Assembly (NCBI GenBank): GCA_022820835.1
Contig: JAJEET010000123.1
Location: 3,608-67,607 of the forward strand
Source: Candidatus Poribacteria bacterium
GTDB lineage: Bacteria; Poribacteria; WGA-4E; WGA-3G
Length of the DNA stretch: 64,000 nt
Reading direction: 5' to 3'
Shown: positions 1 through 54,700 of the stretch, piece by piece
Layout of the letters: each line of letters opens with the position of its first letter
How positions within the stretch are numbered: position 1 is the first letter of the stretch
Made by a program: the position numbers and the translations under genes
The notes under the pieces: generated by a model
What the model was told of the DNA's origin: nothing
What the model saw: the letters and a program-made list of their open reading frames with translations, nothing else
The model's database searches: none

Positions 1-783
1 CCATCCATTTTTCCTACGCCAGAGACAGAAACAGAAAATCGGGTGATTTGCCTCACGGCTCTGGGAAGTAAGAAGTCATTTCATTGCTTGATGACACAGC
101 AGTTGGCAGATGTACACCTTACTGGCGATTCCCAATGCTTCCCTTTCTACACCTACGACGAGGATGGCACGAACCGACAAGAGAACATCACCGATTGGGC
201 GTTGGCAGAATTCCGGACGCACTACAGCGATGATACTATCACCAAGTGGGACATCTTCCACTATACCTACGCCCTCTTGCACCATCCCACCTATCGCGAG
301 AAATACGAGATGAACCTCAAGCGCGATCTGCCGCATATCCCAACCCCCCTTGCCCCCCTTGACAGGGGGGTTGCAGCGGACTTCTGGAGTTTTTCCAAAG
401 CCGGTGCAGCGTTAGCAGATCTCCACGTCAACTATGAATCTGTTCCGAAATACGATAAACTCCGAAAGGTTGAAACCCCCGGCATGCAGGTCAACTGGGA
501 TGTGGAAAAGATGAAACTCTCTAAAGACAAAACGCAGCTGAAGTATAACGATTTCTTGACGCTGGACGGTATCCCTGCGGAGGTTTACAACTATCGGCTC
601 GGCACACGTTCTGCGTTAGAATGGATCGTGGACCAGTATCGTGTCAAAACCGACAAACGGAGCGGCATCGTCAACGATCCGAACCGCGCCGATGCGCCAC
701 AATATATTGTGGATTTGATTGCGCGTGTTATCACTGTCAGCCTAAAGACGGTAAAGATTGTTGAAAGTTTGCCCGAATTGTAG
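1..783 (+). CDS. Type ISP restriction-modification enzyme, C-terminal target-recognition part (5' end outside window)
   Basis: Frame 1 is open from base 1; the track ORF starts at internal Met 43. The tail WDIFHYTYALLHHPTYREKY..NLKRDLPHIP..LHVNYE..YRLGTRSALEWIVDQYRVKTDKRSGIVNDPN matches the conserved C-terminal module I recall from LlaGI/LlaBIII-type single-polypeptide RM enzymes. Not searched. Confidence 0.6.
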   Translation, partial: PSIFPTPETETENRVICLTALGSKKSFHCLMTQQLADVHLTGDSQCFPFYTYDEDGTNRQENITDWALAEFRTHYSDDTITKWDIFHYTYALLHHPTYREKYEMNLKRDLPHIPTPLAPLDRGVAADFWSFSKAGAALADLHVNYESVPKYDKLRKVETPGMQVNWDVEKMKLSKDKTQLKYNDFLTLDGIPAEVYNYRLGTRSALEWIVDQYRVKTDKRSGIVNDPNRADAPQYIVDLIARVITVSLKTVKIVESLPEL

Positions 784-20207: not shown

Positions 20208-22415
20208 CTACTGAGCTTGGGGATTAACGACTGCTTGTGGCGTGAGGAGTAAGGTCATGCGACGCTCTGCAGTGAGGTATCGGTTGACGACGTTGCTAAC
20301 ATCAGTCGCAGAAACATTCGCGAAGGCACTTGCAAGGTGCGATAAGTTGCTTCCGTACTGGTATTCTATTGTCCCCCAACTGACACCGAGCTGCAGGAAC
20401 ATCAGATTCTCTGGCACATTCTCAGGTTTATATTGCATGAGTGTCTTCATGTCCGGCGGTGCACTGAATTCCATCGAAAGGCCCTGCGCGATCATAGGGA
20501 CCTGAGTGTTGTTCTCCGGTTCCTTTAACGGGTTCATCAATTGTCGAATCCGCTGCTTCACCTTTTCTATATCTGCGTCTGGTTTGAGTGAAGCAGTGAT
20601 GTATAAGTATATCTCTTCAGGTGTAAGGAGGTCAACACCGCAGAAAATCCCGCCTGTCCATTCTTTTAATAGGGTATCCTGTATACACGCTAACCGTAAA
20701 AGCACACTCGCTATATAGAGTGCAGGGTAGTCTTCGTTTTCAGGACGAGGGACCGGGTAGGTTTCCATGTAATGCGTTACATTGATATCCCAAGTAGCGT
20801 TTTGATCTTTCGCTATTTCTGGCGGGACCGTTGGTCGGGGAAGCGTTTTCTCGGTTAAGCTGATAGCTCCGAATTGTTTTTCCATTGTGTCTTTCAGGGT
20901 TTCAGGATCAACGCCGCCAATGACACATAAAAGGACGCGATCTGCTTGGACCAGATGTTGATCGCGATATTCTTGGAGTTCACTGAGTTGCGCCGATTGA
21001 ATGTCCTTGCGCATTGCTATATCGGTTTCACCATGCCGAAAGACTTGGTTCCACGCAACCTGTGCCAACTTATGTGTTGCCAAGTTCGCTTCAATAGAGT
21101 CAAATTGCGATAACACTCTCGGACGTTCCTCAGTAAGCGTTTCTGCAGAAAACGGAAGTCCTGAAAGCCATTTAGCGTGTTGTTCCAAACCTCGCGTCCA
21201 TGTATCCGTATTACCCATGAAATCCAAGCGTATATTATCAACCATTGTCTCTGCGTTACTTGTTCTGAAATCAATAGGACCTGCGGTTCGGACTGTCAGA
21301 TGATTAATGAGATGGCTCCAATATGGCTTTGCTTTCCCATCGGTGCCGAGTCCAAGGGGCAAGTAACTGAAGATACCGACATCCGTGGAATTTTCGACAT
21401 GGAGATTAACAACCCGGATACCGTTGCTTAACGTAAAGCGTGTCACTTCAGGGACGGTATTAGAAGTGAAAATATTAGGGAAACCCTCTGATGCGGTAGG
21501 TACTGAGACCTCCTCAGAAACCTGTGAGCCGGTGCTGCTGTTTTTACCGGGGGTGGCAGCCCGTCCGATTTGATTGCGTACATCCGGTTTTGCGACGGTC
21601 TCAAGAACCACAGGTGCCTCAATGATTTCAATAGTGGGTTCGGATTGTGCCTCGAAACTATACGGTCTCTGAAATCTGGAAAGATATTGATGACTCACAC
21701 CGAGCAGCAATATAACTAAAACTGTTGCCGTCCCAAGAGCCATCCATGGCAACAACGGTTTTCCGGTTGGCGGCGATACAGGTTTTATGTCAGCAACTTG
21801 CCGCATGATGTCCTCAAGTAGGTTACCAGACAATTGCCAACCGCCAAGCGTTTCGTTAATCAAGCGTTCATCTGATGCTTGTAAACGCTCTCGCGCCCGC
21901 TGGAGCCGACTCGTAATCGTGTTCACCGATACACCCAGAAATTTGCCAATTTCTTTTGTGGTCATTTCGCCAAGATAGTAAAGCGTTACCACTGTGCGTT
22001 CGCTCTCTGGCAATTTTTCCAGAAGTTGTTTGACAAGTTCATGACGACGTTCACCTGCTTCTCTCTCGCGCTGTTCCAAGATATAACGTTCATAGGTCAG
22101 TTTATCTATAGCTTTCACAGATGAATCTCCCAGCGATTGCATTGCAGGTCTCTTCTTTCGGAGCCAATCGGTGCATAGATTATTTGTGATGACATACAGC
22201 CACCCCGCAAACTGACTGCGATTCTTGAGGGTCGGGAGTTTCTCATAAGCCTGAAGGAAGGTGTCTTGCGTAATCTCCTCAGCATAATGAAAATCGCCGA
22301 TCTTCCGCCACGCAAGGGCGTGAACACTCTTTTGGTATTTCCGAACCAAGGTGCTGAACGCCTCGTCGTCGCCAGATAAGATGTTGTGAATCAACTGAAC
22401 GTCATCTCTCTCCAT
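20208..22415 (-). CDS. ECF sigma factor fused via one TM helix to an M16 (insulinase)-like domain that has lost the catalytic Glu
   Basis: Sigma70 region 2 (DDEAFSTLVRKYQKSVHALAWRK..WLYVITNNLCTDWLRKK) and region 4 (LPESERTVVTLYYLGEMTTKEIGKFLGVSVNTITSRLQRARERL) are present, followed by a TM helix LLPWMALGTATVLVILLLGV. The C-terminal ~490 aa are paralogous to the next gene but read HLINH where that gene has HLIEH. Confidence 0.8.
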   Translation of the reverse strand: MERDDVQLIHNILSGDDEAFSTLVRKYQKSVHALAWRKIGDFHYAEEITQDTFLQAYEKLPTLKNRSQFAGWLYVITNNLCTDWLRKKRPAMQSLGDSSVKAIDKLTYERYILEQREREAGERRHELVKQLLEKLPESERTVVTLYYLGEMTTKEIGKFLGVSVNTITSRLQRARERLQASDERLINETLGGWQLSGNLLEDIMRQVADIKPVSPPTGKPLLPWMALGTATVLVILLLGVSHQYLSRFQRPYSFEAQSEPTIEIIEAPVVLETVAKPDVRNQIGRAATPGKNSSTGSQVSEEVSVPTASEGFPNIFTSNTVPEVTRFTLSNGIRVVNLHVENSTDVGIFSYLPLGLGTDGKAKPYWSHLINHLTVRTAGPIDFRTSNAETMVDNIRLDFMGNTDTWTRGLEQHAKWLSGLPFSAETLTEERPRVLSQFDSIEANLATHKLAQVAWNQVFRHGETDIAMRKDIQSAQLSELQEYRDQHLVQADRVLLCVIGGVDPETLKDTMEKQFGAISLTEKTLPRPTVPPEIAKDQNATWDINVTHYMETYPVPRPENEDYPALYIASVLLRLACIQDTLLKEWTGGIFCGVDLLTPEEIYLYITASLKPDADIEKVKQRIRQLMNPLKEPENNTQVPMIAQGLSMEFSAPPDMKTLMQYKPENVPENLMFLQLGVSWGTIEYQYGSNLSHLASAFANVSATDVSNVVNRYLTAERRMTLLLTPQAVVNPQAQ

Positions 22416-22481
22416 TAGAACTCTCCATAATGCATCAACACAAACGATTGGATTTCTGCTAATACTTCATACCATTCCGAT

Positions 22482-24539
22482 TCATTTCGGTTCCTGAAAT
22501 AGCGATGCCTCAAGTTCAGCGTTCAATGTAATACGTGTTATCCGGCTTACACTAAAGAGCTGACCGTCTATGTTCTGCACAGCATGATACGCGACTTTAA
22601 CGCCATCAACATCGCGGTAATCACTCAAAAGCGTTTCCCGATTAACAGTAATACCTTGAGAGGAATCAGGATAGGCAATTTTCACGATATAATGTGTATC
22701 CTCGCTCACAAAGAGTTTCATCATCTCGCCAGATGGCTGCGGGATCAGCAGAATAGACGCAGGTTTATCTTGTACGTCTTCTGTGCCAGCATACTGGATC
22801 GGAATGTCGTTTTGTGAGAGGTTCGTCAGGAGCCACAACGACTCTCGGAAAACCGCATCTTTGAAGGTATTAGCCATCTGTGGTGGTATCGGTTGAACCC
22901 CGATTGGCATCAACACGAATCCAGAAGTGCCATCAAAGACGTAAGCCGTTTCGCCTTGCGGCATCTTCAAATCTTGTCTAAATTTGTCAGGGTAGACGTA
23001 GTATGATGTGCCTTCTATTTGCGGTCCTGTGGGTGAATTGGCGGTTGCGTGCCCCGCCATGACGATGTTCTTGACTGCTTGCAGTTTCTCAAGCCCACCG
23101 TGTGCTGCAACTGCTGCAGCGAGGATTTCTTTGGCTTTCGCCATGTCTGCTTCACTCGCTTCCGGCATCGGCTCCGCAGGCGGCGGTTCCGGTTGCTTTA
23201 TCTCAACTTCGTTAACCGCGCCGAATTCATCAAGAAACGCATCACCTGGTGCAAGAACTAACGTCATCCGCGCCTCTTCGGTTAAATATCGATTGACAAC
23301 ATCGGCAACATCATCCGCGGAAACATTGGCAAGCGCGCTTGCAAATTCTGGTAAGGTATCACCATGTTGATATTCAAGCAATCCCCACTGTAACCCCAGG
23401 TTTCCGAGCATCATAGTTTCTGTCATACCCGCAGGTTTGTGCTGCTGCATTACCATCTCTATATCCATGGGTGCACTGAATTGCTGGGAGAGCACTGGAG
23501 CAGTCATGGCAACCTGCCAATTGTTCTCTGGCTGTTTTAGTTGGTTTATCAGATGTTTGATGCGTTGTTTAACCTTTTCTATATCTGAATCCGGCTTGAG
23601 TGCCGTGGTGATGTATAGATATGTCTGTTCAGGCGTGATGAGATCTACACCGGAAAAAATGCTACCTGTCAACTGCTTTAGTTCCGAATCCATCATGAGT
23701 GCCTGATTCAAAAGAACATTCGCCACGAAAAAAGCAGGATAGTTTTTATATCTTGGGTCAGGAATCGGGTATGTTTCCATATAATGCGTTACGTTCACAT
23801 CCCAAGTCGCGCGCCGATTTTTTTCCGCTGCGGGTATTGTTGCACTCGGTAGCGTGTTAGCGGTTAATTTAATTTGCCCGAGCTGTTCTTCCATTGCTGA
23901 TTGCAACGCTTCGGGTTCAATTCCACCGATGACACATAAGAGTACACGATCTGCGTGGACCAAGTGGTGGTTTCTATACGCTTGGAGTTCACTCAACTCG
24001 GCGGTTTCAATCGCCCCGCGCATCGCTATATCGGTCTCACCATGCCGAAAAGCTTGATTCCACGCTGCCATTGCGAAGAGCCCAGTATGCAGATTATTGG
24101 TAACAAAATCGAGTTCGCTCAAGGCTTTGGGCAATTCTTCGGCTAAATCTGTCTCTGAAAGCGGTGAATTAGACAGCCATTTGGTTTGCAATTCTAAACC
24201 TCGCTTCCAATTGTCCGTTGTCCCTATAAAGTCCAGATGCATCCCATGGTGCGTTGTTTGTCCGTTACGTTCTACATAGTTCTTAATGGGACCCGTAGTT
24301 CGTAATACCAAATGCTCAATCAGATGGCTCCACTGTGTCTTTGCTTTTCCATCGGTAACAAGTCCGAGGGGCAGGTAACTGAAAATACATACATCTGTGG
24401 AATCTTCAACGTAGAGACTGACAACTTGGATGCCGTTGCTTAATGTAAAGCGTGTCACTTCGGGGGGCGCAGCAGAAGCGAAAGAAAAATTGCCAAGGAT
24501 GAATAACACCACAATGGTGTGTCGAATTTTGTTGATCAT
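22482..24539 (-). CDS. Secreted M16-family zinc peptidase-like protein (HxxEH intact) with C-terminal LolA/lipoprotein-sorting-like domain
   Basis: The signal peptide is MINKIRHTIVVLFILGNFSFASA and the RBS is GGAGG. The inverted zincin motif HLIEH lies at 24312..24326. The C-terminal ~210 aa (..YVYPDKFRQDL..FVSEDTHYIVKIAY..DGVKVAYH..) look like LolA-fold domains. Confidence 0.7.
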   Translation of the reverse strand: MINKIRHTIVVLFILGNFSFASAAPPEVTRFTLSNGIQVVSLYVEDSTDVCIFSYLPLGLVTDGKAKTQWSHLIEHLVLRTTGPIKNYVERNGQTTHHGMHLDFIGTTDNWKRGLELQTKWLSNSPLSETDLAEELPKALSELDFVTNNLHTGLFAMAAWNQAFRHGETDIAMRGAIETAELSELQAYRNHHLVHADRVLLCVIGGIEPEALQSAMEEQLGQIKLTANTLPSATIPAAEKNRRATWDVNVTHYMETYPIPDPRYKNYPAFFVANVLLNQALMMDSELKQLTGSIFSGVDLITPEQTYLYITTALKPDSDIEKVKQRIKHLINQLKQPENNWQVAMTAPVLSQQFSAPMDIEMVMQQHKPAGMTETMMLGNLGLQWGLLEYQHGDTLPEFASALANVSADDVADVVNRYLTEEARMTLVLAPGDAFLDEFGAVNEVEIKQPEPPPAEPMPEASEADMAKAKEILAAAVAAHGGLEKLQAVKNIVMAGHATANSPTGPQIEGTSYYVYPDKFRQDLKMPQGETAYVFDGTSGFVLMPIGVQPIPPQMANTFKDAVFRESLWLLTNLSQNDIPIQYAGTEDVQDKPASILLIPQPSGEMMKLFVSEDTHYIVKIAYPDSSQGITVNRETLLSDYRDVDGVKVAYHAVQNIDGQLFSVSRITRITLNAELEASLFQEPK

Positions 24540-24720
24540 CTTTTACCTCCAAATGTTAGGTCTTCAGACATTGAACGAAAATCGATAAAACGAAACGATT
24601 GTTTTATCGCTTGATTTCTTAAGACGTAATTTGGGTGCAAAAAACGTGCATAATCTGAAAAAAAATGAAAATTTTGGGTTAGATTTGGCAATAGGAGAGA
24701 TCGGAGACGAGATATTTTGC

Positions 24721-33059: not shown

Positions 33060-35837
33060 CTATTTCAGAATCACCATTCGGCGGGTGCTTTCAAAATCAC
33101 CAGCGGTAAATGTGTAGAAATAGATCCCGCTAGCGACCATAGTCCCAGATTCGTTCCTACCATCCCAGTACGCAGCCTTCTCTCGGTTCTGGTAGTTACC
33201 CGGCTCCTGTAGTCCGATATTCAATTGGCGGACAAGCCTACCCCTGACATCATAGATTTTAACGGCAACCTCGGTTCTCTCGGCAAGATTGTACGGAAAC
33301 CATGTTTCAGGGTTAAACGGGTTCGGATAATTCTGGAAGATCATCGTCTGTTTGATATGTCCAAACGTTGTGAGTGTCTGCGATCCAAGATCGACAGGAA
33401 ACGGAACATCCGCAGAACGGAATCCGAGATCAATAGGATTATAGATAAACGCAGAGCCAGCATTATCACCAGCGTTATCATTGCCATCGGCACCGACGAT
33501 CGCGAACGAACCTCTGATACCAACCGAGGCACCGAAGCGGTCAAATCGGTTTGTACCGCTCGCAACAATTCTGCGCTTTTCGACCCAGCTCAACCCGTCC
33601 AGTAGAAAGGTGTAGGCTGAGCCTTTGTCGATCTGATCGGCAGGATCGTCACCCAAAAGCACAGGATGATCATCTTTCCATGCTCCGACGATTGCTGTGC
33701 CTTCATGAATTGCGACTGCTGACCCGAATTCATCACCTGACACGGTCCCAGCGGAAGTCAGTTTTGCTTGTTGTATCCAAGCCTCGCTTGTTTCTACAAA
33801 AATATAAGCGGTCCCCATATCTGTTTCATTCCGATCATCCTTAGGCGCACCGATGATCGCGACCCCATTCGTTAGATCGACAGCGTATCCGAATTCATCA
33901 CCGAGTCCACTGTCGTTTGGAATGAGCTGCGTGTTTTGCGTCCATGTGCCGCCGCTACGTGTAAAAATGTAAGCTGCGCCTGAATTCGGCCCTGCCGCGT
34001 CCGCCCCGTGTGCACCGATAAGCGCACTGTCGCCGTAGACAGCGACAGCAAAACCGAATAGATCCCCTGGCACAGCGTTTCGGTGCGTTAATTTTGCCTG
34101 CTGCGACCAAGAAGTACCGTTTCGGACAAAGACATAAGCAGCCCCCGTATCTACACCACCTTCATCCTTTCCATAAGCACCAACGATAACAGTATCTTCA
34201 TAAATAGCGAGTGCGGATCCGAACTGGTCGAACATACCGAGGTCATTACCGACCAATTTTGCCTGTTGGATCCAGTTGTCTCCCGAACGAATGAAGATGT
34301 ATGCGGCACCCGCTTCCGGGCCCGCGTCATCAACGCCGGGCGCACCAATAACCGCGGTTTCCCCGCTGATCGCAACAGTATTACCAAATAGGTCGCCTGC
34401 CTTCGCATCGTTGGCAATAATCTTCGCGCGTTCTAACCAGAGGACGTCACTCCGTTCAAAGATGTACGCGGCACCAGCGTTCGGCGCAACATCATCGTTT
34501 TGTTGCGCACCAGAGATCGCGAGATTCCCATGAATCGCTACCGAAATTCCAAACTGATCTTCCGATGCTGTTTCGCCATCGCTGAGCTTGATGTTCTCAA
34601 CCCATCCACCGCCATCTTTTTGCTCAAAAATATAAGCAGCACCAGAGTTGGGGCCCCCAGCACTGTGATACGGAGCACCCGCGATAACTTCGTTTCCACT
34701 GATGGCGACAGCAGCACCAAGTTGGTCCCCGCTGCTTCTATCACTCGCGACGAGTTTCGTGTGTTGGTTCCAGAATGGCGGTTCATTTTGTGTAAAAATG
34801 TAAGCGGCACCCACGGTATCTTCACCAACGATACCCGATCTCGCACCAATGACAGCCGTTTCACCACTAATATCGACCGAGACACCGAAAGAAGTTGCGC
34901 CATCGGGATCAATTGGGATCATACGGATACGGGTGCGATTCCTTTTTTGTAACCAGAACCTGCCCTCCTCGCGTTTATAGATATAAGCGGCACCGGTTTT
35001 CTCGTTGTTAGGTGAAGTCACAATAGCAAAATCACCATCAACATCGACGGCGTACCCAAAATTGTCACTTGCTTCGGTGTTGTTGCCGATGAGTTTCTTC
35101 TGGAATATCCAACCGGACGGGTCCCGTACAAATATATAAGCGGCACCGGCATTTTCACCGGCTTCGTCATCACGGATTGCGCCGATGATGGCTGTCCTAC
35201 CGTCAGTGCCGACAGAGAAACCGAAATTTGCGAATCTGCTGGCATCAGGGGCAGCGAGCACGGCTGTCTGGATCCATAAGTTGCCTCTTCGCTCGAAAAT
35301 GTATGCCGCTCCTGCGTCTGCGACAGGATTGTTGGCGCGATATGCCCCAACGAGTGCTGTGTCGCCAGCAATTGCAACTGAAATTCCGAAATAGTCCCCT
35401 GCCTTCGCGTCAAGGGCAACCAGTTTCATCTGCTCGACCCATTGTGTGCCTTGCCGCGCGAAAATATAAGCAGCACCTGAGTTCTTGCCTACATCGTCTT
35501 TCCTCGGTACACCGACGATGGCGTAGTCACCACTCATTGCAAGTTTTGTTCCGAATTCGTCATCAGCTGCCGAATCGCTGAGGTACAACTTTTGATGTTG
35601 TACCCATCCGGTTTCACTGCGGAAAAAGACATGGATTGAACCTGCATTTGCACCATTTTCGGTATCATCGTTCGGAACACCCACCATCGCATAGTCACCG
35701 CTTATACCGACACTCGTACCAAGATTATCGCTAACAACAGCAGCACTCGTATTCAGTTGCACCCTGTCGGCATTGCTGTGCAAGGCTAAACCGACTCCGA
35801 AAAACAAGGTTAGCATGGCAATCTGTAATCTCTTCAA
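33060..35837 (-). CDS. Secreted FG-GAP/integrin-alpha-like beta-propeller repeat protein with T9SS type A C-terminal sorting domain
   Basis: It has a signal peptide and about 14 repeats of ..DxFGxSVAIsGdxAvvGA..dD..G.naGAAYIF.r.g..W.q. The C-terminus reads FQNYPNPFNPETWFPY..VKIYDVRGRLVRQL..GIYFYTF (Por/T9SS CTD). The start is TTG 35837 or ATG 35816. Confidence 0.8.
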   Translation of the reverse strand: MKRLQIAMLTLFFGVGLALHSNADRVQLNTSAAVVSDNLGTSVGISGDYAMVGVPNDDTENGANAGSIHVFFRSETGWVQHQKLYLSDSAADDEFGTKLAMSGDYAIVGVPRKDDVGKNSGAAYIFARQGTQWVEQMKLVALDAKAGDYFGISVAIAGDTALVGAYRANNPVADAGAAYIFERRGNLWIQTAVLAAPDASRFANFGFSVGTDGRTAIIGAIRDDEAGENAGAAYIFVRDPSGWIFQKKLIGNNTEASDNFGYAVDVDGDFAIVTSPNNEKTGAAYIYKREEGRFWLQKRNRTRIRMIPIDPDGATSFGVSVDISGETAVIGARSGIVGEDTVGAAYIFTQNEPPFWNQHTKLVASDRSSGDQLGAAVAISGNEVIAGAPYHSAGGPNSGAAYIFEQKDGGGWVENIKLSDGETASEDQFGISVAIHGNLAISGAQQNDDVAPNAGAAYIFERSDVLWLERAKIIANDAKAGDLFGNTVAISGETAVIGAPGVDDAGPEAGAAYIFIRSGDNWIQQAKLVGNDLGMFDQFGSALAIYEDTVIVGAYGKDEGGVDTGAAYVFVRNGTSWSQQAKLTHRNAVPGDLFGFAVAVYGDSALIGAHGADAAGPNSGAAYIFTRSGGTWTQNTQLIPNDSGLGDEFGYAVDLTNGVAIIGAPKDDRNETDMGTAYIFVETSEAWIQQAKLTSAGTVSGDEFGSAVAIHEGTAIVGAWKDDHPVLLGDDPADQIDKGSAYTFLLDGLSWVEKRRIVASGTNRFDRFGASVGIRGSFAIVGADGNDNAGDNAGSAFIYNPIDLGFRSADVPFPVDLGSQTLTTFGHIKQTMIFQNYPNPFNPETWFPYNLAERTEVAVKIYDVRGRLVRQLNIGLQEPGNYQNREKAAYWDGRNESGTMVASGIYFYTFTAGDFESTRRMVILK

Positions 35838-45190: not shown

Positions 45191-48100
45191 ATGCGAAAAA
45201 GAATCCAAAAAATCTCCATTTTCATCGGAATACCTCTTATCATTCTGCTATGCGGTGCGCTGGTGTTCGTCCAATCAGAAAGTTTCCGCAATTGGGTCGA
45301 AAAAAGGCTTGAGACGGAATTAAGAAACCGGCTAACAGACAACTACACCTTCAACATCGGGAACATAAAAGGCAGCGTTTTCGGGAATGTTACCATCAGT
45401 AACGTTAAAATATCTGAAATCTCCAAAGCAGATGAACCCGTAATTTCCACACAAGAAATCGTACTCAACTACAGTCTGATGCAGTTACTCAGACGCAAAG
45501 TTGAAATTAAAAAACTGACAGTAGACGATCCAGAAATCCATGCGAAGACTGATCTCGACGGCACACTCAATCTGTCCAATATATTTCGGAAGAACCCATC
45601 AAATGAGGATGCTCCACAATTCAGTTTCGCCATTGAAGACGTTAGACTTAATCGCGGAAAGATTGATTACACGGATACGCAAAGAGACCTTGAGATAAGC
45701 GTCCAAGGGGTTACGCTTACGGTGAAAGGACCACTCGATACATGGAATCACACAGGCGATTTAAGCATCGAGACTGGCAATTTTAAGTTCAACAGTTCCG
45801 AAACACCAATTGATAAGTTTGAAATTGATTTTCAGATTTTAGCCGACAGTAGCAGATTCGAGAGCCTCTTAGATTTTGGCAACTCAAGATTGTTCGCTGC
45901 AGGGCGATTTCCGTATAAATCAACGCAGAGACATTGGGGAATTAACCTCGATTTACAGCGATTAGATGTCGCAGATATAGAGCGATTTTTCGGCGAAGGC
46001 ACCGAACTTGAAGGCATTGTAAAAGGTTCTATAACTGCAAACGGAAAACTTGATTCCGCCTTCGCTGCTGCACTCGCTGTGGAAACCTCGTCCTTTTCTT
46101 TAACACAAACCGAGAACAATAGACACATCGCGTTGACAGACCTAAAAATTGATGCCGGTTTCAATTTACAACCGATCCCAACATTCACACTAAAGGATTT
46201 CAGCGCACAGATCGCCGACGGTGCCCTGACCGGCAGCGGAAGTATCGGACTCCAAAACCGCCCAGAAGGCGATGTTATCGCGCAGCTTCGGCAACTCACA
46301 ACGCACCCACTTGCCTATACAGGGCAGTGGGAGGCAACGGATGCCCAACTCATACCGCTGCTGTCAATGTTCGTTCAGCTGCCCAGCTTCCTTGTAGACA
46401 GTACCGGACACCTCTCAGGAAACACCACGTTCAACGGAAGCAGCACCGACATTTCAACGCTCAATCTCGATAGCAGGTTAGAGATAACAGATACCATCCT
46501 CAATTCGGTCGCACTCCAAGACTCCTTAATCAATTTCAAAATCCAGGATGGCGTATTGAACACAAGTGGACACCTCGATGAAACGATCATTGCCGTCACC
46601 GGTCCCTTCACACTAACTGAGCAAGACACTCTGGACATCCGTATATCCAATATCAACTTCGACGATCTCATGAAAATTGTCAATAGCGCGGATTTCGGTG
46701 GAACCGGTGAATACACCGCCAAGTTGTCATCGGACGGCAAACTAAACGGATATATGAAAATCCCAAACGCGAATTTTTTCGACATCCCGATCGGTGTATT
46801 GACTGGCAATTTCAACTACCACAATGGACAGGTCTTCATCGAAAACGGACGACTCACCAAAAACACGATAAACGATATCGGGACAGACTATACGAGTCAA
46901 GCCGCAATCACCGGTGTCGTAGATGTTGAGGGTGAGTTTCCCGCACAACTCAGCGTCATCGCTAATCCCGTTTATGTTCAACACTACCCAAAGTTATTGT
47001 TAGGGGCAGAATATCCGGTAACCGGTCAAATCAGAGGCGAACTCAAATTAGACGGAACGCTCATCAACCTCGATGGTGCTGCCGACTTCAGTGTTACAGA
47101 GGGTATCGCATGGGGACTCCATTTGGATCCCTTCACTCTCCCCTTGCGCATTGAGGATTACTACCTCACACTTCCCGATGCAAAAATAACCACCCGCGGA
47201 CAGAAAATTACGCTTAACGTGGCGGTCGCACCGAACGCAGACTTTGATTTCCGACTCGAAAGCGATGCACCTGTGAATTTTCAGGAACTTTCCAAGGCTG
47301 CACAAATTTCCAACTTCCCTTTCGACGGACAATTTGATGTCTCGGTCATCGGCACATTCAAGCAACCACAACCGCTCGATTTTCAGATCGAACTCGACTT
47401 CAAAGACATAACCTATGTAGACTTTGAAGACAATGGAGACGTTAAGAGGTTTCCACTCGGGGACGCGGTCTTGCACGGTGAACTCGTAGAACTGAAAAAT
47501 ACCACCGGTGAAACTGACCGGTTTGACTTTACAGGAAATGGGTTCAGCGGTCAGATTCAAGGCTACGTAAGCATGGCTCTGGACAACCCTTACAAGTTTA
47601 CAGTGGAAACAAACGGACTTGAAGTTAAACCGTTCCTGCGTATCCTGCACCCCGCTTTTGAGACAGTCACCGGTGTCGCCGACGGGCGCGCACAGATAGC
47701 AGGAACCGTGACAGACCTTGTAGGAGCAACCGAAAATACATCTCCTAATCCTGATGAACAACGCATCTTCCCCTATAGCGTCGATGTTGAAATAGACACA
47801 AGCCAACTTTACTACGGGGACACCAGAGGACGGCCCGTTCCATTCACAAATGCAGAACAGATCCAGATACGTCTTAGAGACGATGTATGGAGGATTGACA
47901 CACTCTCTTGTAGGACATTAGAGGACACGTCACCTTTTATCGAACTTACTGGGACCTTTGACCAGAAAAATGACACGATGGATATTCACGCCAAAGCGGA
48001 CGGATTCGCTTTATCGGCTCTCGCACCAGCATTCGGACTCGTTCCTGAAGACATATCCGCTGGCACCGGACACTACACCGTAGAGATTGATGGTTCCCCA

Positions 48101-51100
48101 GAACACCCGATCGTCGCGGCAAACTGGGTAATCCCTCAATTAGATTTGAGAACAAAAAACGGTGATCTCCATATCACTGAAGCCAGTGGAACAATAGACT
48201 ATCAGAACGATAGCGTCCATCTCAAAAAAACGACGTTGAAACTTTTTGGGAACGCAGTGGATATAGCAGGCGACATAGACGTTGATCTCGAAGATCTTAA
48301 CAATTCGCAGCTATACCTTACCGTCAACGCCCCTACTTTGGAAATAACGACGTTTGCTGAATTAATAGCGAAAGTCTCCGAAAATATCATCAAGCCAACC
48401 GATTTAACCAGCGGCGTGTTAGGTGCTTCAGCTGACATCACAGGCACCTTCGCCGAAACTTCAATTTCTATAAACGCACAAACGGCACCAAATCAACCGA
48501 TTCATCTCGTGCCTTATACAAATCCGATTATAGTGGCAGATATAGAGGCAAACGCCACACTCCGTTCGGATTCTCTAAACATCCAATCTGTAAAAGCAAA
48601 CGGACAAATAGGTGTTAGCACCTACGCACTACAAGGAAACGCTTCGTTCTCAACCCAAAACGCAGAAAAGATGCAATTCGGCATAGATGTGTCGGTATCA
48701 GAATTCGAGGTATCTGATTTTGTGGCTTTGCTATTAGGCAATACATCACTCGGACACGCTACCGTCTCGGGGAAAGTAAAAATTAACGGCACCGGAACAG
48801 ACCCGCAACAAATCTCCATAATAGGCAGCATCTCAGAACTTAATCTCCACGGGTACAACACAGATATTACAAACAGATCTGAAATCCAGCTCCAATCCGA
48901 ACGCGGTAACCTGAGTATTCATCTCCCGTTAGAACTGGAGTCGCCTGAAATAATCGCAACGACAGACATCCGCATTACAGGAACTATTGACGCACCTGAA
49001 ATTACAGCAGAATGGAACGGAAACATCAGCGGAATGGAATCTAACGGGGATGTTGAATACCGTGACGAACGCATAACGGTTAGAAGTATCGAACTGAGTA
49101 ACCGTGTGGGTACGTCAACGATTACTGGCGTTATCCCGTTTAATTTGGCATTCTCGGCGATAGACTTCTCTGATCGGTTTATAGTACAACCCATGGATCT
49201 GCAGTTACGCGGTCACGAATTGCCACTTGAATTCTTCCCTGGTATTGAGACGCTCTTTTCGGAAGCAGACGGCACCATTGACATTGATTTAACTATTCGA
49301 GGTACAAGCCGTAACCCTCACATAATAGGAGACTTGTCGCTTGAGGCAGCGCACCTCCAACTGAAAAATTTCCACGAACCGATCCAGAATGTGAAGATAA
49401 AACTGACTGCAAGCGAAAACACAATTGCTCTCAAAGAACTCGCACTCGAAATAGCTCCCGGCTACTGTACACTTCAACAAGCACAATTGATATTAGACGG
49501 ATTGACCCCTAAAGCATTCACATTATCGGGATTGAGATTTGAAAGATTCCCACTCGGTTCAACAGTGCAGCACGCGATACCAACGGACATACTCGAAAAT
49601 GTTGAGGGACACGTATCCGCGACACTCATTGGATTGACAATCCCATTTGATCGCTTTCTGACAAAAGTAGCAGGCACGCCACTCCCACAAATTCGCGAGA
49701 TCCCTTCACTTAGAGATATTATGATGGTTTCAAGTGCGGACCTCTCTATTAATAGTGTCCGGCTCGCCTTTAAGGTGGCGGCATGGAATCGACATTACGA
49801 CTTCCAGGACCCACAACCCGTTCAGATGTCTCTAAACGCTGGAACACTCACGGTCCCAGAAGCGTTTATCCTTGAGAACCAGCACACCTTCTCTGTAGAC
49901 CAAACCTTCACTGACGAGGACGAAAAACCGGAGGAAGTCCGCGGCGACATACACAAAATAGAAGCCGCAAAGACGGCACTCAGTATTGACGGCGGAAGCC
50001 AGTGGTCAATAAACGGAGGATTTAATACAGCACTGCGATTCAGGAATTTTGATGTTTCAGCGATAACGCACACTTGGTACGCACCGTATCGGGTTAAAGG
50101 CGCGTTGTCGGGTGCCCTACAGATAAGCGGCACCAGCAAAAACCCGAAGATGACTTTTCGGCGACACGAGTCCGAACCCGCCGAACTCTATTTGGATGAC
50201 ATCCCAATCGACCTACGCTGGAGAGTCCGCTATCAAAACGGAAAATGGGAAATCTCAAAGAAACGGTATGCGTCCGTGAGTTTCGGTGGAAACCTACTAA
50301 CATTTTCCGGGGAACTGCCCTACCCAATTGAATTGATTCCGTTCCTGACGCAGCTCCAACAATCACCGGAGACAGTCTGGAAAAAATTCCGAGAAACAGA
50401 CATAAATGGCACCTTGGACGTTCAGATAGAACACCTCGACCTTCTATCAACCCTCGTACCAGGTCTGGGATCACCAACCGGAACAAGTCAAGTCCATGTT
50501 GAATTGACTGGCACAGTAGAATCACCGAAAGCCTTAGGGGCTATGCGATTCGATAACATCGGATTTAAAATTCCAGCAGCAAATATGCACGTCGGAGAAG
50601 TAACAGGCATCGTTGAACTAACGACGCAAGGCGCAACTATCAAGCAACTCACTGGAAGATTGAACAACGGTGCGTTTTCAATGACCGGCAGCGTCAAGAC
50701 ACCACCAGATGGACGCGTATGGGAAAACCCGCCAACCTTCGACCTGCAAGCGAGCATCGCATCTACGACTTTTGAACAATCGAGGAAGTACCTGATTCAA
50801 CTCGACGATAATCCGAGCCAATTTTACTTACAAGGTGGATTTGATGACCCGAAACTCACAGGCAACATAAACATTAGTGGCGGTTATTATAAACAAAACT
50901 GGGAAACCGTCCGAGATTGGCTTGTCGGGGCATCCGTCACTGAAATGGATGTTATGTTAGATTATCCAATCCTCCGAGACTTAGAATTGGAGGTAGGTAT
51001 CGATATCGCTGATAATTTTGAAGTGCGTTCATCTATTGCGGGCCCCATTAATATCAAGATATCCTCTGCAGGGAAACTCATCGGTCCCATTCAAGAACCG

Positions 51101-51589
51101 ATTTACAACGGAAATATCTCCGTACTCAGCGGGATAGTTGCATCACATCTCATTCCGCAAGCCTTTGAATTTATCGAAGACTCAGGTTCAAACATTACGA
51201 ACCGTAGCCTTGACACTTTTAATCCAGAACTCAATCTTTCTCTTCGTACACCGAAACGTATTCGCGGTGTACTACCAAGAGATGGAAGCACAGTTGACCT
51301 TCAGATTGTCGCGAAACTCACTGGCACTTTAAACAACCCCAACTTCACTTTGAGCACACCAGATGCCACTGTGGTACTCACACATGAAGATATTTCGGCG
51401 TTCCTGGTGCGCAATATCTCATTCTCACATGCACTCGGTCCATTTACGTTCAATTTTCACCGTCCAAATGATGCAGGCGCACGCTCTATCAGCGCGGATT
51501 ATCAACTCAGAGAGAATATGTCCATTAAAATTGAAAGCAACGAAAACGGTGAATACGGGGCTGACTTTGAGATAAAAGGACGCTTCTGA
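45191..51589 (+). CDS. tamB: TamB/AsmA-like translocation and assembly module protein (very large, 2132 aa)
   Basis: It has an N-terminal signal-anchor IFIGIPLIILLCGALVFV and a long beta-rich body. The C-terminal DUF490-like end reads ..NPELNLSLRT......VDLQIVAKLTGTLNNPNFTLSTPD..ISADYQLRENMSIKIESN..GADFEIKGRF. Confidence 0.8.
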   Translation: MRKRIQKISIFIGIPLIILLCGALVFVQSESFRNWVEKRLETELRNRLTDNYTFNIGNIKGSVFGNVTISNVKISEISKADEPVISTQEIVLNYSLMQLLRRKVEIKKLTVDDPEIHAKTDLDGTLNLSNIFRKNPSNEDAPQFSFAIEDVRLNRGKIDYTDTQRDLEISVQGVTLTVKGPLDTWNHTGDLSIETGNFKFNSSETPIDKFEIDFQILADSSRFESLLDFGNSRLFAAGRFPYKSTQRHWGINLDLQRLDVADIERFFGEGTELEGIVKGSITANGKLDSAFAAALAVETSSFSLTQTENNRHIALTDLKIDAGFNLQPIPTFTLKDFSAQIADGALTGSGSIGLQNRPEGDVIAQLRQLTTHPLAYTGQWEATDAQLIPLLSMFVQLPSFLVDSTGHLSGNTTFNGSSTDISTLNLDSRLEITDTILNSVALQDSLINFKIQDGVLNTSGHLDETIIAVTGPFTLTEQDTLDIRISNINFDDLMKIVNSADFGGTGEYTAKLSSDGKLNGYMKIPNANFFDIPIGVLTGNFNYHNGQVFIENGRLTKNTINDIGTDYTSQAAITGVVDVEGEFPAQLSVIANPVYVQHYPKLLLGAEYPVTGQIRGELKLDGTLINLDGAADFSVTEGIAWGLHLDPFTLPLRIEDYYLTLPDAKITTRGQKITLNVAVAPNADFDFRLESDAPVNFQELSKAAQISNFPFDGQFDVSVIGTFKQPQPLDFQIELDFKDITYVDFEDNGDVKRFPLGDAVLHGELVELKNTTGETDRFDFTGNGFSGQIQGYVSMALDNPYKFTVETNGLEVKPFLRILHPAFETVTGVADGRAQIAGTVTDLVGATENTSPNPDEQRIFPYSVDVEIDTSQLYYGDTRGRPVPFTNAEQIQIRLRDDVWRIDTLSCRTLEDTSPFIELTGTFDQKNDTMDIHAKADGFALSALAPAFGLVPEDISAGTGHYTVEIDGSPEHPIVAANWVIPQLDLRTKNGDLHITEASGTIDYQNDSVHLKKTTLKLFGNAVDIAGDIDVDLEDLNNSQLYLTVNAPTLEITTFAELIAKVSENIIKPTDLTSGVLGASADITGTFAETSISINAQTAPNQPIHLVPYTNPIIVADIEANATLRSDSLNIQSVKANGQIGVSTYALQGNASFSTQNAEKMQFGIDVSVSEFEVSDFVALLLGNTSLGHATVSGKVKINGTGTDPQQISIIGSISELNLHGYNTDITNRSEIQLQSERGNLSIHLPLELESPEIIATTDIRITGTIDAPEITAEWNGNISGMESNGDVEYRDERITVRSIELSNRVGTSTITGVIPFNLAFSAIDFSDRFIVQPMDLQLRGHELPLEFFPGIETLFSEADGTIDIDLTIRGTSRNPHIIGDLSLEAAHLQLKNFHEPIQNVKIKLTASENTIALKELALEIAPGYCTLQQAQLILDGLTPKAFTLSGLRFERFPLGSTVQHAIPTDILENVEGHVSATLIGLTIPFDRFLTKVAGTPLPQIREIPSLRDIMMVSSADLSINSVRLAFKVAAWNRHYDFQDPQPVQMSLNAGTLTVPEAFILENQHTFSVDQTFTDEDEKPEEVRGDIHKIEAAKTALSIDGGSQWSINGGFNTALRFRNFDVSAITHTWYAPYRVKGALSGALQISGTSKNPKMTFRRHESEPAELYLDDIPIDLRWRVRYQNGKWEISKKRYASVSFGGNLLTFSGELPYPIELIPFLTQLQQSPETVWKKFRETDINGTLDVQIEHLDLLSTLVPGLGSPTGTSQVHVELTGTVESPKALGAMRFDNIGFKIPAANMHVGEVTGIVELTTQGATIKQLTGRLNNGAFSMTGSVKTPPDGRVWENPPTFDLQASIASTTFEQSRKYLIQLDDNPSQFYLQGGFDDPKLTGNINISGGYYKQNWETVRDWLVGASVTEMDVMLDYPILRDLELEVGIDIADNFEVRSSIAGPINIKISSAGKLIGPIQEPIYNGNISVLSGIVASHLIPQAFEFIEDSGSNITNRSLDTFNPELNLSLRTPKRIRGVLPRDGSTVDLQIVAKLTGTLNNPNFTLSTPDATVVLTHEDISAFLVRNISFSHALGPFTFNFHRPNDAGARSISADYQLRENMSIKIESNENGEYGADFEIKGRF

Positions 51590-51766
51590 TAGCGGGTACG
51601 CAGTTATAGATACGGATTTCTGCGAAATCCTTTTAGTTAACAGTTAACAGTTAAGAGGGCTCTTGTACTTATAACTGAAAGTGAGCGTAGCGAATGTACT
51701 ACGTACTTACAACTTTAAATCAACCACGTACTTATAACCTATAACTTATAACTTATAACCATTCCA
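51590..51766. repeat. Composite palindromic intergenic element between tamB-like and bamA-like genes
   Basis: It contains gggtacgcagtta (51594..51606), the hairpin module at 51611..51636, gttaaca x3 (51636..51656), ctgaaagtgagcgtagcgaat, and cttataa/cctataa/cttataa/cttataa (51731..51758). Confidence 0.8.
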
Positions 51767-54700
51767 ATGTACACATCGTTCCTACATTACAGATCAATAA
51801 CTCGCTCACTCTCCGTTCTAATGCTTTGCGTTTTTTTCGGACAATCTGCAAGCGCAGCGGAAGAACTTTCTGAGCATCCAAGCGCAGAGAAAATTACCCT
51901 ACACGAGGCGTTTGACGCAACGCGTATCATAAAAATTGTGTATTACATTGATGGGATACTTGTCTCCGAGACAACAACACAACTCAGACCCCTCAGCAAC
52001 CGATCAGCGGTACATGTCGGCGCCAAATTATCTCAGCACGCCATCCAACAGAGCATTAAGCTACTCTACAAAACACAGCAATTTTCCCAAATTCAGGTTT
52101 ATGAGCAAGAGACCCCGAATGGCATAATCTTAACATATCAATTCACATCCTTTGAACCTATCAAAGCGATTAAACATATCGGTATCCTTGAGAACGACGA
52201 ATTTGAACAAACTATTCAGGACGTAATGAAATCGAAAGTTGGCGGAAAATATGTCCCGGCAATCGCGAAAGCCGATATTAAACGTATCAAACAGGTCTGT
52301 GAAGATTATGGGTATTTCAACGCACGAATTACGGTCTCTGACGCGCTAACTGATGACGGGATGTTAACTTACCAGATAGATGTAGGTGTACCATCTATTA
52401 TCCGTGAATTGCAAATTCAGGGCAACCAAGCCATCTCAACGGGCCACCTTAAAGCAGCTTGCGGATTCAGTAACCAACAACCTTCTCCGATTTATAACAA
52501 ATCCGACGTAGATACCGATGTGGCAGCCATGCTGAAACTCTATCGAGAAAGCAGCTATCCTACCGCTGGCATCGAATCAAACTTTATACCTGAAACCGGC
52601 ATCCTACAGTTTCGTGTTGATGAAGGCAAAGAGATAACGTTCAATTTCGTCGGTGACCTTTCGTTATCGCAACAAGATACATTCGAAGAAGATATAGCCA
52701 ACTTGATAAACGCTGCAACCCAGTCTATGTGGAAGAGAAGGATAAAATCTTATTTTGAAGACTTGGGGTATCAAGACACAACCGTCGAAAGCCTGAATGA
52801 AACCAGCGTTCGGCTTACGATTGATCCCGGTACGCAATACAGGGTTGCCAGCGTTACTTTTTCCGGAAACCGTGTGTTCTCGGACGCAGACCTCCTACGA
52901 GAGATGACAGTCAAACCGACGAGCGGCCTTAGGCGTAACTTACAACTTTCCAATGTTATCACACAACTGCTACCGGGACAAACACAGAAACCTTTTTTCG
53001 ATCCACAGGATCTTGATACAGATGAACATCGACTCAGGATTTTATACGAAAAAGCAGGCTATCCGAATCGTGACATACAGACGTATGTTGAGAAACAGCC
53101 ACCAAATAGACAAAATATCGGTGAAGCTGCAATACATGTTTTAATTAATGAAAACTATAAAGAGGTCATTCACCGATGTGAGATTACCGGTAATCGAGCG
53201 ATAGATACTGCCAAACTCCTAAAACGTTTGGAAAAAGAACTGCCGCTCCCGCAACCGAATGCACGCTTTGAAAAAACGGTCTACCAAAACGCGCTCCTAA
53301 GTGTATATCGTGAGCTCGGATACAATGACGTGGAGGTTAAGAACACTTATATCCCTGAAACAGAAACACCAATTTTTCGAGTCGCAGGCGATTTTTCGGA
53401 ATCGCTTGCCGATGGGGAGCTCCCACCCGAACTTCAAAACGAATTTGAAAAACACAAACGACCCCTGAGCGGACTTTTCATCGCCAATAATATCGACAAT
53501 CGTTGGAGCATCCAAGATATTGAGAGCAACCCGCGTTATACACTCATACAAGAAACGACAGAACTGCAGGTATTTGAACACGGTATCCTACATCTTACCG
53601 TCAATAAGGAAGGTGAACAGGTCACATTCGGCAAATTCTATTTTCAAGGCGACACCGACGTTGTGATACGCCGTATTCTTGAACGGGAAGTAGCACATCT
53701 TAACGGTAAACTTTGGACACCAGAGGCGTTAAGCCTTGCCTTGCGAAATCTTGACAGTTTAGGCATCTTCCGTAAAATTGAAGCCACGCCACTCGAAACC
53801 GCTGTAAACAGTACAACCAACGGCAACTCTCCTTCCACAGTAAAAACTAAAGACGTTGTTATAACAGTCGAAAAACAACAACCGAGAACTTTTAGATACG
53901 GTGCCGGTTATGGGATCGCAGAAGGGTGGCGCACCACTTTAGAACTAACTGATAGCAACTTTCTCTTTAAGCGAAATGTACGAGGGCGCGTCCGCGGTAG
54001 ATTAGCATGGCGAGATGAACTCGGATACCTTCTCGAAGCAAGAATTACACAACCCTGGTTAATCTGGCGGATACAAGGTAGTCTACAAGCATCCGCTAAA
54101 AAGTTAGAGGTAGACGATAATGTACGCGCACTCGAAGGCAGCTTCATCCTCAACAGGCGATTAAGGGAATCGAATTACTTAGATTTCCGATACAGTTACC
54201 GAGATTTGAACCAACCGATACTACCGATAATGCCAGACCTCTCACCCGCAACCGGTGTTTTTGAAGAACAGAACCCATTCCGCACAACGGTGAGCAGCTT
54301 ACGCCTCTCGTGGACTTATGATAGCCGTGTACAGTTTCTGAATCCGGTAGGCGGTATGTTCAACGAGATTACACTCGAATATGCCGGAGGTTTCCTGCAA
54401 GGCGAAACCAGTTTTATTAAAACGACAACGGATACCCGATATTACCAAAAACTCATCGGAGATTTCGTATTAGCGACCGTACTACGATTGGGGGTTACCA
54501 CTGGATTACGTTCAAATCGTCGTGCCGAACTTATTTCGTTTGAACGGTTCTGGGCTGGCGGCGGCACAACGGTTCGCGGGTATGCCGAACGATCCCTCGG
54601 ACCCGAAGACATCGCTGGCACCCACCGGGGCGATGTTCAATTCATCTTTAATACAGAGTTACGATTCCCGATCTATTGGTTAATCCGGGGCGCACTCTTT

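Follow-up and report, generated by a model that had tools for sequence, protein, structure and literature searches.

What use does a sigma factor make of a protease-like domain that has lost its catalytic residue, when an intact copy of that domain is encoded in the gene next door? The question was raised by two neighboring genes in a stretch of 64,000 nt (hereafter the window) from Candidatus Poribacteria bacterium (GCA_022820835.1, contig JAJEET010000123.1, positions 3,608-67,607, forward). Gene A encodes an extracytoplasmic function (ECF) sigma factor that continues through a single transmembrane (TM) helix into an M16B-like ectodomain, and gene B, directly upstream on the same strand, encodes a predicted secreted M16B-like zinc peptidase (Table 1). 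We found that the A ectodomain is a paralog of B with a degenerate active site yet under strong purifying selection, and that A is one member of a large modular family of poribacterial sigma factors.

Such a fusion might have come from faulty assembly or annotation, or be a pseudogene in decay. Among 5.8 billion proteins searched, orthologs of A fell into at least 120 protein clusters (90% identity clustering), 69-100% identical to A. These were 726-735 aa long and carried an identical Pfam set, with the exception of three shorter entries (639-650 aa) without region 2. All protein matches with a named taxon belonged to Candidatus Poribacteria, many of them on Mb-scale contigs, and a scan of GTDB species genomes returned 444 related stretches whose taxon-naming records were likewise all poribacterial. 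The orthologs at loci L001-L045 were nearly all full-length, several on closed chromosomes; 41 species-level genomes had one, including complete chromosomes of 5-6.7 Mb. The ratio of nonsynonymous to synonymous substitution rates (dN/dS) was 0.1-0.3 in each segment of A. The sequence-only reading had proposed mapping raw reads over 21650..21900 to confirm the fusion, and the full-length orthologs from other assemblies stood in for that check. Because the uninterrupted frame recurs across clusters and species-level genomes, we rejected the artefact or pseudogene explanation, to which we assign next to no probability.

We then characterized the sigma end of A. Domain searches detected Sigma70_r2, Sigma70_r4 and Peptidase_M16_C in the same polypeptide. 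PF04542, PF08281 and PF07638 all scored above their gathering thresholds, Sigma70_ECF was matched too, and the Pfam scan gave no region-3 match. A thus has σ2 and σ4 without σ1.1 or σ3, the composition of an ECF (group 4) sigma factor. In NCBIfam, A reached 105.8 bits on the sigma70-ECF model TIGR02937 (cut-off 42.9) and none of the equivalog cut-offs, the best being SigW at 120.9 bits against a cut-off of 209. Hydropathy analysis identified one strongly hydrophobic segment, and elsewhere in A the KD19 value never exceeded 1.6. The sequence-only reading had described one polypeptide with σ2, σ4, one TM helix and an ectodomain of ~490 aa; Pfam, TIGR02937 and hydropathy agreed with it, and its coordinates for the gene and the helix were exact. 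Its description of the linker as anti-sigma-like did not hold. The linker is 38 aa long and has neither Cys nor His; a Pfam scan at E values up to 10 found no anti-sigma domain in it, and a PDB profile search with it matched no anti-sigma chain. No zinc-binding HxxxCxxC motif or recognizable anti-sigma domain was found between σ4 and the helix. Pfam also gave no FecR domain in A: residues 181-315 had no match at all, and the ectodomain matched only Peptidase_M16_C. The predicted topology puts the sigma side in the cytoplasm and the ectodomain in the periplasm.

The ectodomain was compared with B. Residues 316-726 of A were 60% identical to residues 20-431 of B (BLASTP E 1e-175), bearing out the earlier view that it is a paralog of the first ~430-440 aa of B, and Peptidase_M16_C matched A at aa 477-631 (E 5e-11). 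The contrast between HLINH in A and HLIEH in B, which had been read directly from the letters, was exact and extended across the clade: in a joint alignment of species-level loci, none of the 41 A orthologs had an intact HxxEH, whereas all 39 B orthologs kept both this motif and the Glu of the downstream ALSE motif. The 41 A ectodomains carried nine degenerate motifs (HLINH, NLIMR, HLINY, HLVNH, HLVNY, NLIMH, SLIMH, QLINH and QLVNR). Across 121 A orthologs, the catalytic Glu column held N in 105, M in 16 and E in none; the first His ligand was lost in 21 and the second in 46 (17-38%), and the position of the putative zinc-ligand Glu (Q437 in A) was Q in 90 and E in 29. Only three columns were conserved in B and the outgroups and lost in A, namely B E75 (the catalytic Glu), E135 (a Glu of the downstream Glu pair) and T82 (a nearby Thr), and the loss was therefore focused on the active site. 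The A ectodomain lacks the HxxEH motif with downstream Glu by which family M16 is recognized; judged by its sequence, it is a pseudopeptidase homolog and no enzyme.

The dead domain has been preserved. Pairwise dN/dS was 0.178 for the A ectodomain and 0.173 for the M16 module of B, compared to 0.105 for the sigma region of A and 0.27-0.31 for its linker, TM helix and juxtamembrane segment. We concluded that the A ectodomain is a maintained pseudoenzyme under purifying selection and no decaying relic. Because its active site is dead and selection on it is strong, its role would be to bind, as a sensor module, rather than to catalyze. In a neighbor-joining tree, the A ectodomains formed a single clade nested among B sequences, which suggests that one duplication and fusion gave rise to the A ectodomain from B.

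The module of B itself resembles a working M16 peptidase. A phmmer comparison aligned aa 26-339 with the solved M16 protease 5EUF (E 1e-7), setting HMLEHL of that protein against HLIEHL, and PF05193 Peptidase_M16_C matched aa 184-336 (E 6e-11). PF00675 was not detected in B, which therefore belongs to a divergent M16 subfamily. The Glu pair has the 7-residue spacing of the canonical M16 pair and is conserved in B and the outgroups, and E142 is the putative third zinc ligand; the distance from HLIEH to this Glu is 66 residues, against ~76 in canonical M16B (PMC12731061). No universally conserved R..Y corresponding to the canonical M16 R/Y substrate-binding pair occurs in the C-terminal half of this subfamily. 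With the zinc motif and the two-domain fold of M16 both recognizable in aa 25-435, B is predicted to be an active peptidase.

The two genes appear to form an operon. A scan for terminators and hairpins found no terminator between them, and B lies directly upstream of A in the same orientation in ~35 of 41 loci (~85%), so that the gene pair, whose co-occurrence the sequence-only reading had proposed to test, was found widely; A stands without an adjacent B in four loci (L012, L014, L017, L019). The earlier suggestion that a shared ECF-type promoter be sought, also upstream of B, led to a candidate motif that had one exact match in the window against 0.05 expected; no regulon copies of TGCACGTTTT-N11-TTACGTC were present elsewhere in the window. 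Across 1.3 Mb of loci the motif occurred once per A locus (twice in L008 and L043), invariably on the coding strand and at the operon head. It preceded B, or an extra open reading frame (ORF) of ~200 aa that in turn precedes B (13 loci); in L012 and L014 it preceded the ~200-aa ORF and then A directly, and in L017 and L019, where B is absent, it stood directly before A. The motif at the head of the B-A operon resembles an autoregulated ECF promoter and would probably function as one. Related variants, TGCAnGTTTT…TCGTCTTTA, preceded only 5 of 45 paralogous sigma genes, and we rejected the notion of a family-wide promoter. A perfect hairpin in the putative 5' untranslated region, between the motif and the B start codon, was partly conserved in the upstream alignment of other loci.

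The extra gene between the promoter motif and B occurs in at least 13 genomes and is not in the window (examples are L011:5958-6581, L009:5868-6563, L012:7333-7884 and L034:5085-5717). Its product is a membrane protein of G-x-V-S-[FIC] pentapeptide-like repeats with a weak match to Pfam GLTT. Similar Gly-x-I-A-I-G repeat tracts connect the M16-like domain to the kinase or sigma module in proteins P0185, P0228 and P0137, described below, and this recurrence of Gly repeats beside M16-like modules suggests a recurrent functional link. Most loci with the Gly-repeat gene share an element of ~75 nt with an inverted repeat (…GAAAGTTTAAGAAGG…CCTCTTAAAC…) between that gene and B (L005, L006, L009, L010, L011, L015, L016, L018, L022, L025, L041, L043), which could be an intercistronic hairpin or terminator.

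The N-terminal half of A is not confined to the M16 fusion. Loci L046-L079 matched A only from aa 1 to ~310, at 60-75% identity, and 59 ORFs had the A-type sigma module but lacked M16; in 55 the match extended to the linker and TM segment. These paralogs are often present in several copies per genome, some in tandem, and their ectodomains comprise LRR with GHL15, BNR/sortilin propellers, WD40, Kelch and unknown folds (L046:7971-9935, L047:8001-10916, L061:12668-14554 and L058:7995-10733 are examples). Across 49 paralogs, the juxtamembrane motif was conserved nearly as well as σ2 and σ4 (Table 1). Because this segment is conserved regardless of the ectodomain that follows, the family pattern argues for one common activation machinery, and the juxtamembrane motif is a candidate site-1 processing or recognition segment. 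One locus (L044:1-3957) shows an ectodomain swap, in which a sigma module 88% identical to that of A carries an LRR and GHL15 ectodomain and a B-like M16 gene lies immediately upstream. On a 7.9-Mb contig (L085:6001-8908), the gene for a stand-alone M16-like protein, P0123 (40% identical, with HLIEH), converges on that for a sigma-LRR fusion of 528 aa; thus, fusions of sigma factors to repeats co-occur with this M16 subfamily beyond the core clade. We concluded that A is no unique invention but belongs to a large modular family in Poribacteria.

The M16-like module, in turn, is not confined to this cassette. The subfamily of the A ectodomain is a small and divergent one, with 416 representatives among 1.84 billion proteins, most of them secreted proteins of ~440 aa. 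Other architectures recur. Multi-TM ECF sigma factors end in the module in P0125, P0137, P0138 and about ten more clusters, on a scaffold that is common without M16 in Planctomycetota, Verrucomicrobiota, Phycisphaerae and Sumerlaeota. Ser/Thr kinases carry it beyond a TM segment in P0185 and P0228, and P0126 and P0132 are C-terminally anchored forms. P0185 keeps its HLVEH, and its gene follows directly after a stand-alone ECF sigma gene of 183 aa (L082:1908-5445). ECF sigma factors under kinase control typically have this layout, and here the M16-like domain would be the sensor of the kinase. HxxEH is intact in the non-poribacterial sigma, kinase and anchored fusions, and only in the poribacterial fusion is the domain dead. 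Loci were read for three fusion types, and of these the poribacterial one alone has an active paralog alongside; the loci of P0125 and P0185 have no adjacent paralog. The M16-like module has thus been recruited to ECF signaling at least three times.

The sequence-only reading had also assigned B a LolA-like C-terminus, and the fold was recovered. The C-terminal 245 aa were modeled by AlphaFold2 (AF2) with a pLDDT of 91.5, and Foldseek returned 3BUU and 3BK5 as top PDB matches (E 1e-9, TM-score 0.55-0.6), with LolA/LolB structures among the matches at E 1e-9 to 1e-5. The LolA-like part of B had no direct Pfam match; PF17131 is carried by its homologs P0277, P0280, P0343 and P0344, and such homologs are mostly stand-alone poribacterial proteins of ~288 aa. 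The model thus supports a LolA-superfamily fold for aa 441-685. Because the domain is fused to only 6 of ~39 B orthologs (the window and L003, L008, L028, L039 and L041), it is accessory and not part of the core. In the window, B has a mosaic make-up. Over the M16 part it shares 93% identity with the B of L001, which has no LolA-like domain; over the LolA-like part it shares 94% identity with the B of L003, and the M16 parts of these two are just 67% identical. Such a pattern implies recombination, or gain and loss of the domain, among strains. In the RseA-RseB system of E. coli sigma-E, RseB, a periplasmic LolA-fold protein bound to the periplasmic domain of the anti-sigma factor, controls site-1 cleavage. 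The domain of B gave TM-scores of 0.2-0.28 to RseB/MucB, against 0.55-0.6 to 3BUU and 3BK5, and with the domain missing from most B orthologs we rejected the RseB analogy as a core feature.

How does A compare with known sigma factors? Jogler et al. reportedly described in 2012 a planctomycete group, ECF01-Gob, in which an ECF sigma factor is followed by a TM segment and a WD40 extension. By that account, ECF01-Gob resembles the A paralogs in being a membrane-anchored ECF with a large repeat extension, which in Poribacteria is of WD40, Kelch, LRR or BNR type; we know of no report of an M16 extension in that group. IutY of Pseudomonas putida (ECF243, FecI-like) resembles A in that a single chain begins with an ECF sigma factor, crosses the membrane once and ends in a periplasmic sensor (PMC8999054, PMC5411451). 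Unlike A, which lacks FecR and ends in an M16B pseudoprotease, IutY has a FecR-type anti-sigma extension and signals with a TonB-dependent transducer. The actinobacterial groups ECF48, ECF52 and ECF53 (e.g. SCO4117) share with A a membrane-spanning extension and an extracytoplasmic domain of several hundred residues (PMC8999054), but their anti-sigma element is of the zinc-finger (ZAS-like) type, their ectodomains bind carbohydrate or are Pro-rich, and they belong to another phylum. The kinase-M16 arrangement at L082 has its counterpart in ECF43 EcfP/PknT, where a membrane kinase with an extracytoplasmic sensor is encoded beside the ECF sigma gene; A differs in having no kinase, its sensor being fused straight to the sigma factor. 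A single-protein, membrane-tethered ECF with a fused sensor is therefore of a known kind (IutY, ECF52/53, ECF48; PMC8999054), and the M16 pseudoprotease is a new input module. Accordingly, of the one-polypeptide sigma/anti-sigma switch that had been proposed, the single tethered polypeptide stood, as a type of architecture already known (PMC8999054), and the anti-sigma part did not. That the sequence-only reading knew of no described ECF group with an M16-type extension agreed with the literature: neither such an extension, nor its pairing with an active parent gene, nor the poribacterial cassette appeared in the literature searched, which did not cover the ECF classification supplements.

We propose the following model. 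B and A would form a two-gene operon under a conserved ECF-type promoter that the sigma domain of A probably recognizes, so that the operon would be autoregulated. The σ2-σ4 core and its short linker would be held at the cytoplasmic face of the membrane by the single TM helix, with the juxtamembrane motif, the flexible spacer and the M16B-type half-clamshell domain on the periplasmic side. On a signal, a site-1 protease would cut within or close to the juxtamembrane segment, and intramembrane site-2 cleavage would then free the sigma domain. The pseudoprotease would set the timing of cleavage by binding a peptide or protein ligand, B, or both, and A and B might pair as an M16B heterodimer. Proteolysis of a fused sigma/anti-sigma protein has a precedent in IutY, whose sigma domain is released via Prc and RseP (PMC8999054, PMC5411451), and proteolytic release has been predicted for ECF48/52/53 (PMC8999054). 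Activation is most likely common to the whole family, because the scaffold of sigma factor, linker, TM helix and juxtamembrane motif is reused with many ectodomains. The use of M16-like ectodomains in other ECF pathways, on the multi-TM scaffold and in a kinase beside an ECF sigma gene, counts in favor of the model. Several observations weigh against it. No anti-sigma domain is detectable in the linker of A; inhibition may therefore depend only on tethering to the membrane, for which sigma factors offer less precedent. The window contains no site-2 protease gene. The -35-like element, TGCACG, differs from the textbook GAAC, and the paralogs are ~85% conserved in σ2 and σ4 yet only 5 of the 45 have a related motif. 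Four loci keep A without an adjacent B, and a mirror-tree comparison of the A ectodomain with B gave a weak signal (r 0.38, partial r 0.19). Finally, the AF2 model of full-length A, built with 47 orthologs, had a mean pLDDT of 46.5 and was unusable for placing the linker relative to σ2 and σ4. Taken as a whole, we regard the model (an autoregulated B-A operon, with A freed by regulated proteolysis that the pseudoprotease sensor gates) as having an even chance of being right.

The alternatives differ mainly in the role of B. The A ectodomain could be the non-catalytic subunit, and B the catalytic one, of a membrane-anchored M16B clamshell peptidase, in which case substrate-driven closure, or loss of B, would control exposure of the juxtamembrane site of A and hence sigma release, coupling protease load to transcription of the protease operon. 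Gene duplicates of a homodimer commonly go on interacting, which speaks for such a pair. M16B enzymes are obligate dimers of two ~50 kDa chains, either alike or different; in the heterodimers, often encoded by neighboring genes, just one chain has HxxEH, and the other cannot be dispensed with (PMC12731061). TTHA1264/TTHA1265, SPH2681/SPH2682, AlbF/AlbE and MPP alpha/beta are side-by-side paralogs of this kind, one of each pair having HxxEH and the distal Glu, and in the first three pairs the genes are adjacent (PMC12731061). A and B show the same features: the A ectodomain and the B module are each exactly one M16B subunit long and 60% identical, chains with and without HxxEH are encoded by adjacent genes, co-oriented in ~35 of 41 loci, and the dead domain is under strong purifying selection. 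On the other hand, the inactive chains of known heterodimers are soluble, with no known case of one anchored in the membrane or joined to a transcription factor, and an A-B heterodimer is hypothetical. A lacks an adjacent B in four loci, the L044 locus pairs B with a sigma factor that has an LRR/GHL15 ectodomain, the trees of B and A are incongruent, and the partial mirror-tree correlation is 0.19. Moreover, the independent sigma-M16 and kinase-M16 fusions keep HxxEH, and P0125 and P0185 have no paralog beside them. We consider a heterodimer switch possible but doubtful.

B could instead act on A as an enzyme, that is, as a dedicated site-1 protease that cuts the periplasmic spacer or juxtamembrane region of A and so releases the sigma domain; the sequence-only reading had suggested that release might depend on the active paralog. 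Its active-site motif is intact in every B ortholog (39/39), it is predicted to be secreted into the compartment of the A ectodomain and to be co-transcribed with A, and the flexible, low-complexity spacer of A (aa 271-315) would offer a target. Yet the juxtamembrane motif and TM helix are common to at least 49 paralogs that have no M16 neighbor, which points to a common protease and makes B less likely as a dedicated one. A constitutive site-1 protease made from the same promoter would make the switch trigger itself. M16 enzymes close around free peptides of short length and do not as a rule cut tethered, folded proteins (PMC12731061), and A again occurs in four loci without an adjacent B. 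This role for B seems to us very improbable. It is also conceivable that A and B never meet: A would bind a peptide or protein signal alone or as an A-A dimer, and B would be an induced member of the regulon and the evolutionary donor of the ectodomain, degrading the class of substrate that A senses. The motif at the operon head means that B would be co-induced, A persists where B is not adjacent, and co-evolution of the two is weak; the other ectodomains on the scaffold (LRR, WD40, Kelch and BNR) are generic binding modules, and M16B homodimers such as BHP exist (PMC12731061). Left unexplained are the adjacency of the genes in ~85% of genomes and the invariant site of B set against the decayed site of A, although simple operon inheritance fits both as well. 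We judge this version unlikely; it overlaps with our model of a proteolytically released sigma factor, and differs only in whether A and B touch.

Table 1. Features of the B-A locus. Positions refer to the window; the last column gives conservation across 49 paralogs of the A cassette.
Feature	Residues	Position	Strand	Evidence or remark	Conservation
Gene A, membrane-tethered ECF sigma factor with pseudo-M16B ectodomain	735 aa	20208..22415	-	ORF and domain searches	
A sigma region 2 (σ2)	23-89	22149..22349	-	PF04542 Sigma70_r2, E 1e-14	0.86
A sigma region 4 (σ4)	126-178	21882..22040	-	PF08281 Sigma70_r4_2, E 2e-16	0.84
A cytoplasmic linker (predicted topology), ...LINETLGGxQL..NIMRQVADIKP...GKPLLPW	183-220	21756..21869	-	conserved in orthologs and 49 paralogs	0.72
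A single TM helix	221-240	21696..21755	-	KD19 maximum 2.14	0.74
A extracytoplasmic juxtamembrane motif, QYLxRFQxPYSFEAxSEPTIEI (predicted topology)	241-270	21606..21695	-	conservation close to σ2/σ4	0.80
A variable Pro/Ser/Gly-rich spacer	271-315	21471..21605	-		0.59
A pseudo-M16B ectodomain	316-726	20238..21470	-	60% identity to B, Peptidase_M16_C, dN/dS	
A ectodomain start	316-360				0.42
A HLINH, degenerate HxxEH (catalytic Glu to Asn)	368-372	21300..21314	-		
B-A spacer, 66 nt		22416..22481	-	GGAG ribosome-binding site just 5' of A ATG	
Gene B, secreted M16B-like zinc peptidase (predicted) with C-terminal LolA-like domain	685 aa	22482..24539	-		
B LolA-superfamily domain (modeled)	441-685	22485..23219	-	AF2 and Foldseek	
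B M16B-like module	25-435	23235..24467	-	PDB 5EUF and Peptidase_M16_C	
B Glu pair E135...E142 (AEELPKALSE)	135-142	24114..24137	-	aligned to 'ERqvvaEE' of 5EUF	
B HLIEH, intact inverted-zincin motif	H72, E75, H76	24312..24326	-	present in 39/39 B orthologs	
B signal-peptide-like N-terminus, ...FSFASA/AP (predicted)	1-24	24468..24539	-	hydrophobic stretch, then AxA	
Perfect hairpin, 11-bp stem, CGATAAAACGA…TTGTTTTATCG, in putative 5' untranslated region		24583..24609		terminator/hairpin scan	
Candidate ECF-type promoter, TGCACGTTTT-N11-TTACGTC		24623..24650	-	84 nt 5' of B ATG	

The genes that flank the B-A operon are unrelated to it, and include xylose-isomerase-like TIM barrels, periplasmic binding proteins and a luciferase-like oxidoreductase. 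Farther along the window (45191-54901), genes for a 2132-aa AsmA/DUF748 (TamB-like) protein and then a 1044-aa Omp85/POTRA protein make up an outer-membrane biogenesis pair, which shows that the cell is diderm and has a periplasm. Another eukaryote-like repeat protein, of 925 aa, with 14 FG-GAP repeats and a FlgD-Ig-like C-terminus, is encoded at 33060-35837.

Although ECF sigma factors with fused membrane-spanning sensors are known, only a small number have been studied, and rarely has the input been identified. The input of A is unusually open to interpretation, since its sensor is a pseudoprotease with the active parent gene next door, and this gives a testable idea of the ligand (peptides, or the protease itself). 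The M16-like module may be a general, unrecognized extracytoplasmic sensor domain, because another ECF scaffold, as well as Ser/Thr kinases that pair with ECF sigma factors, have recruited it independently. The juxtamembrane and promoter motifs offer a way to reconstitute the switch in a heterologous host and to build orthogonal synthetic sigma switches. Poribacteria are uncultivated sponge symbionts, and their sigma-TM cassette, with its LRR, WD40, Kelch, BNR and M16 ectodomains, links "eukaryote-like" proteins directly to gene regulation; its expansion is relevant to how a symbiont might sense its host. A more speculative idea, which we put forward tentatively and think unlikely on present evidence, is that the A ectodomain and B together make up a membrane-anchored M16B clamshell whose opening and closing, driven by substrate, are read out directly as sigma release. 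If true, this would be a protease used as a receptor, with a pseudoenzyme subunit linking transcription to the load of peptides in the periplasm, within a protein family of sponge symbionts that wires eukaryote-like binding domains (LRR, WD40 and Kelch) straight to RNA polymerase.

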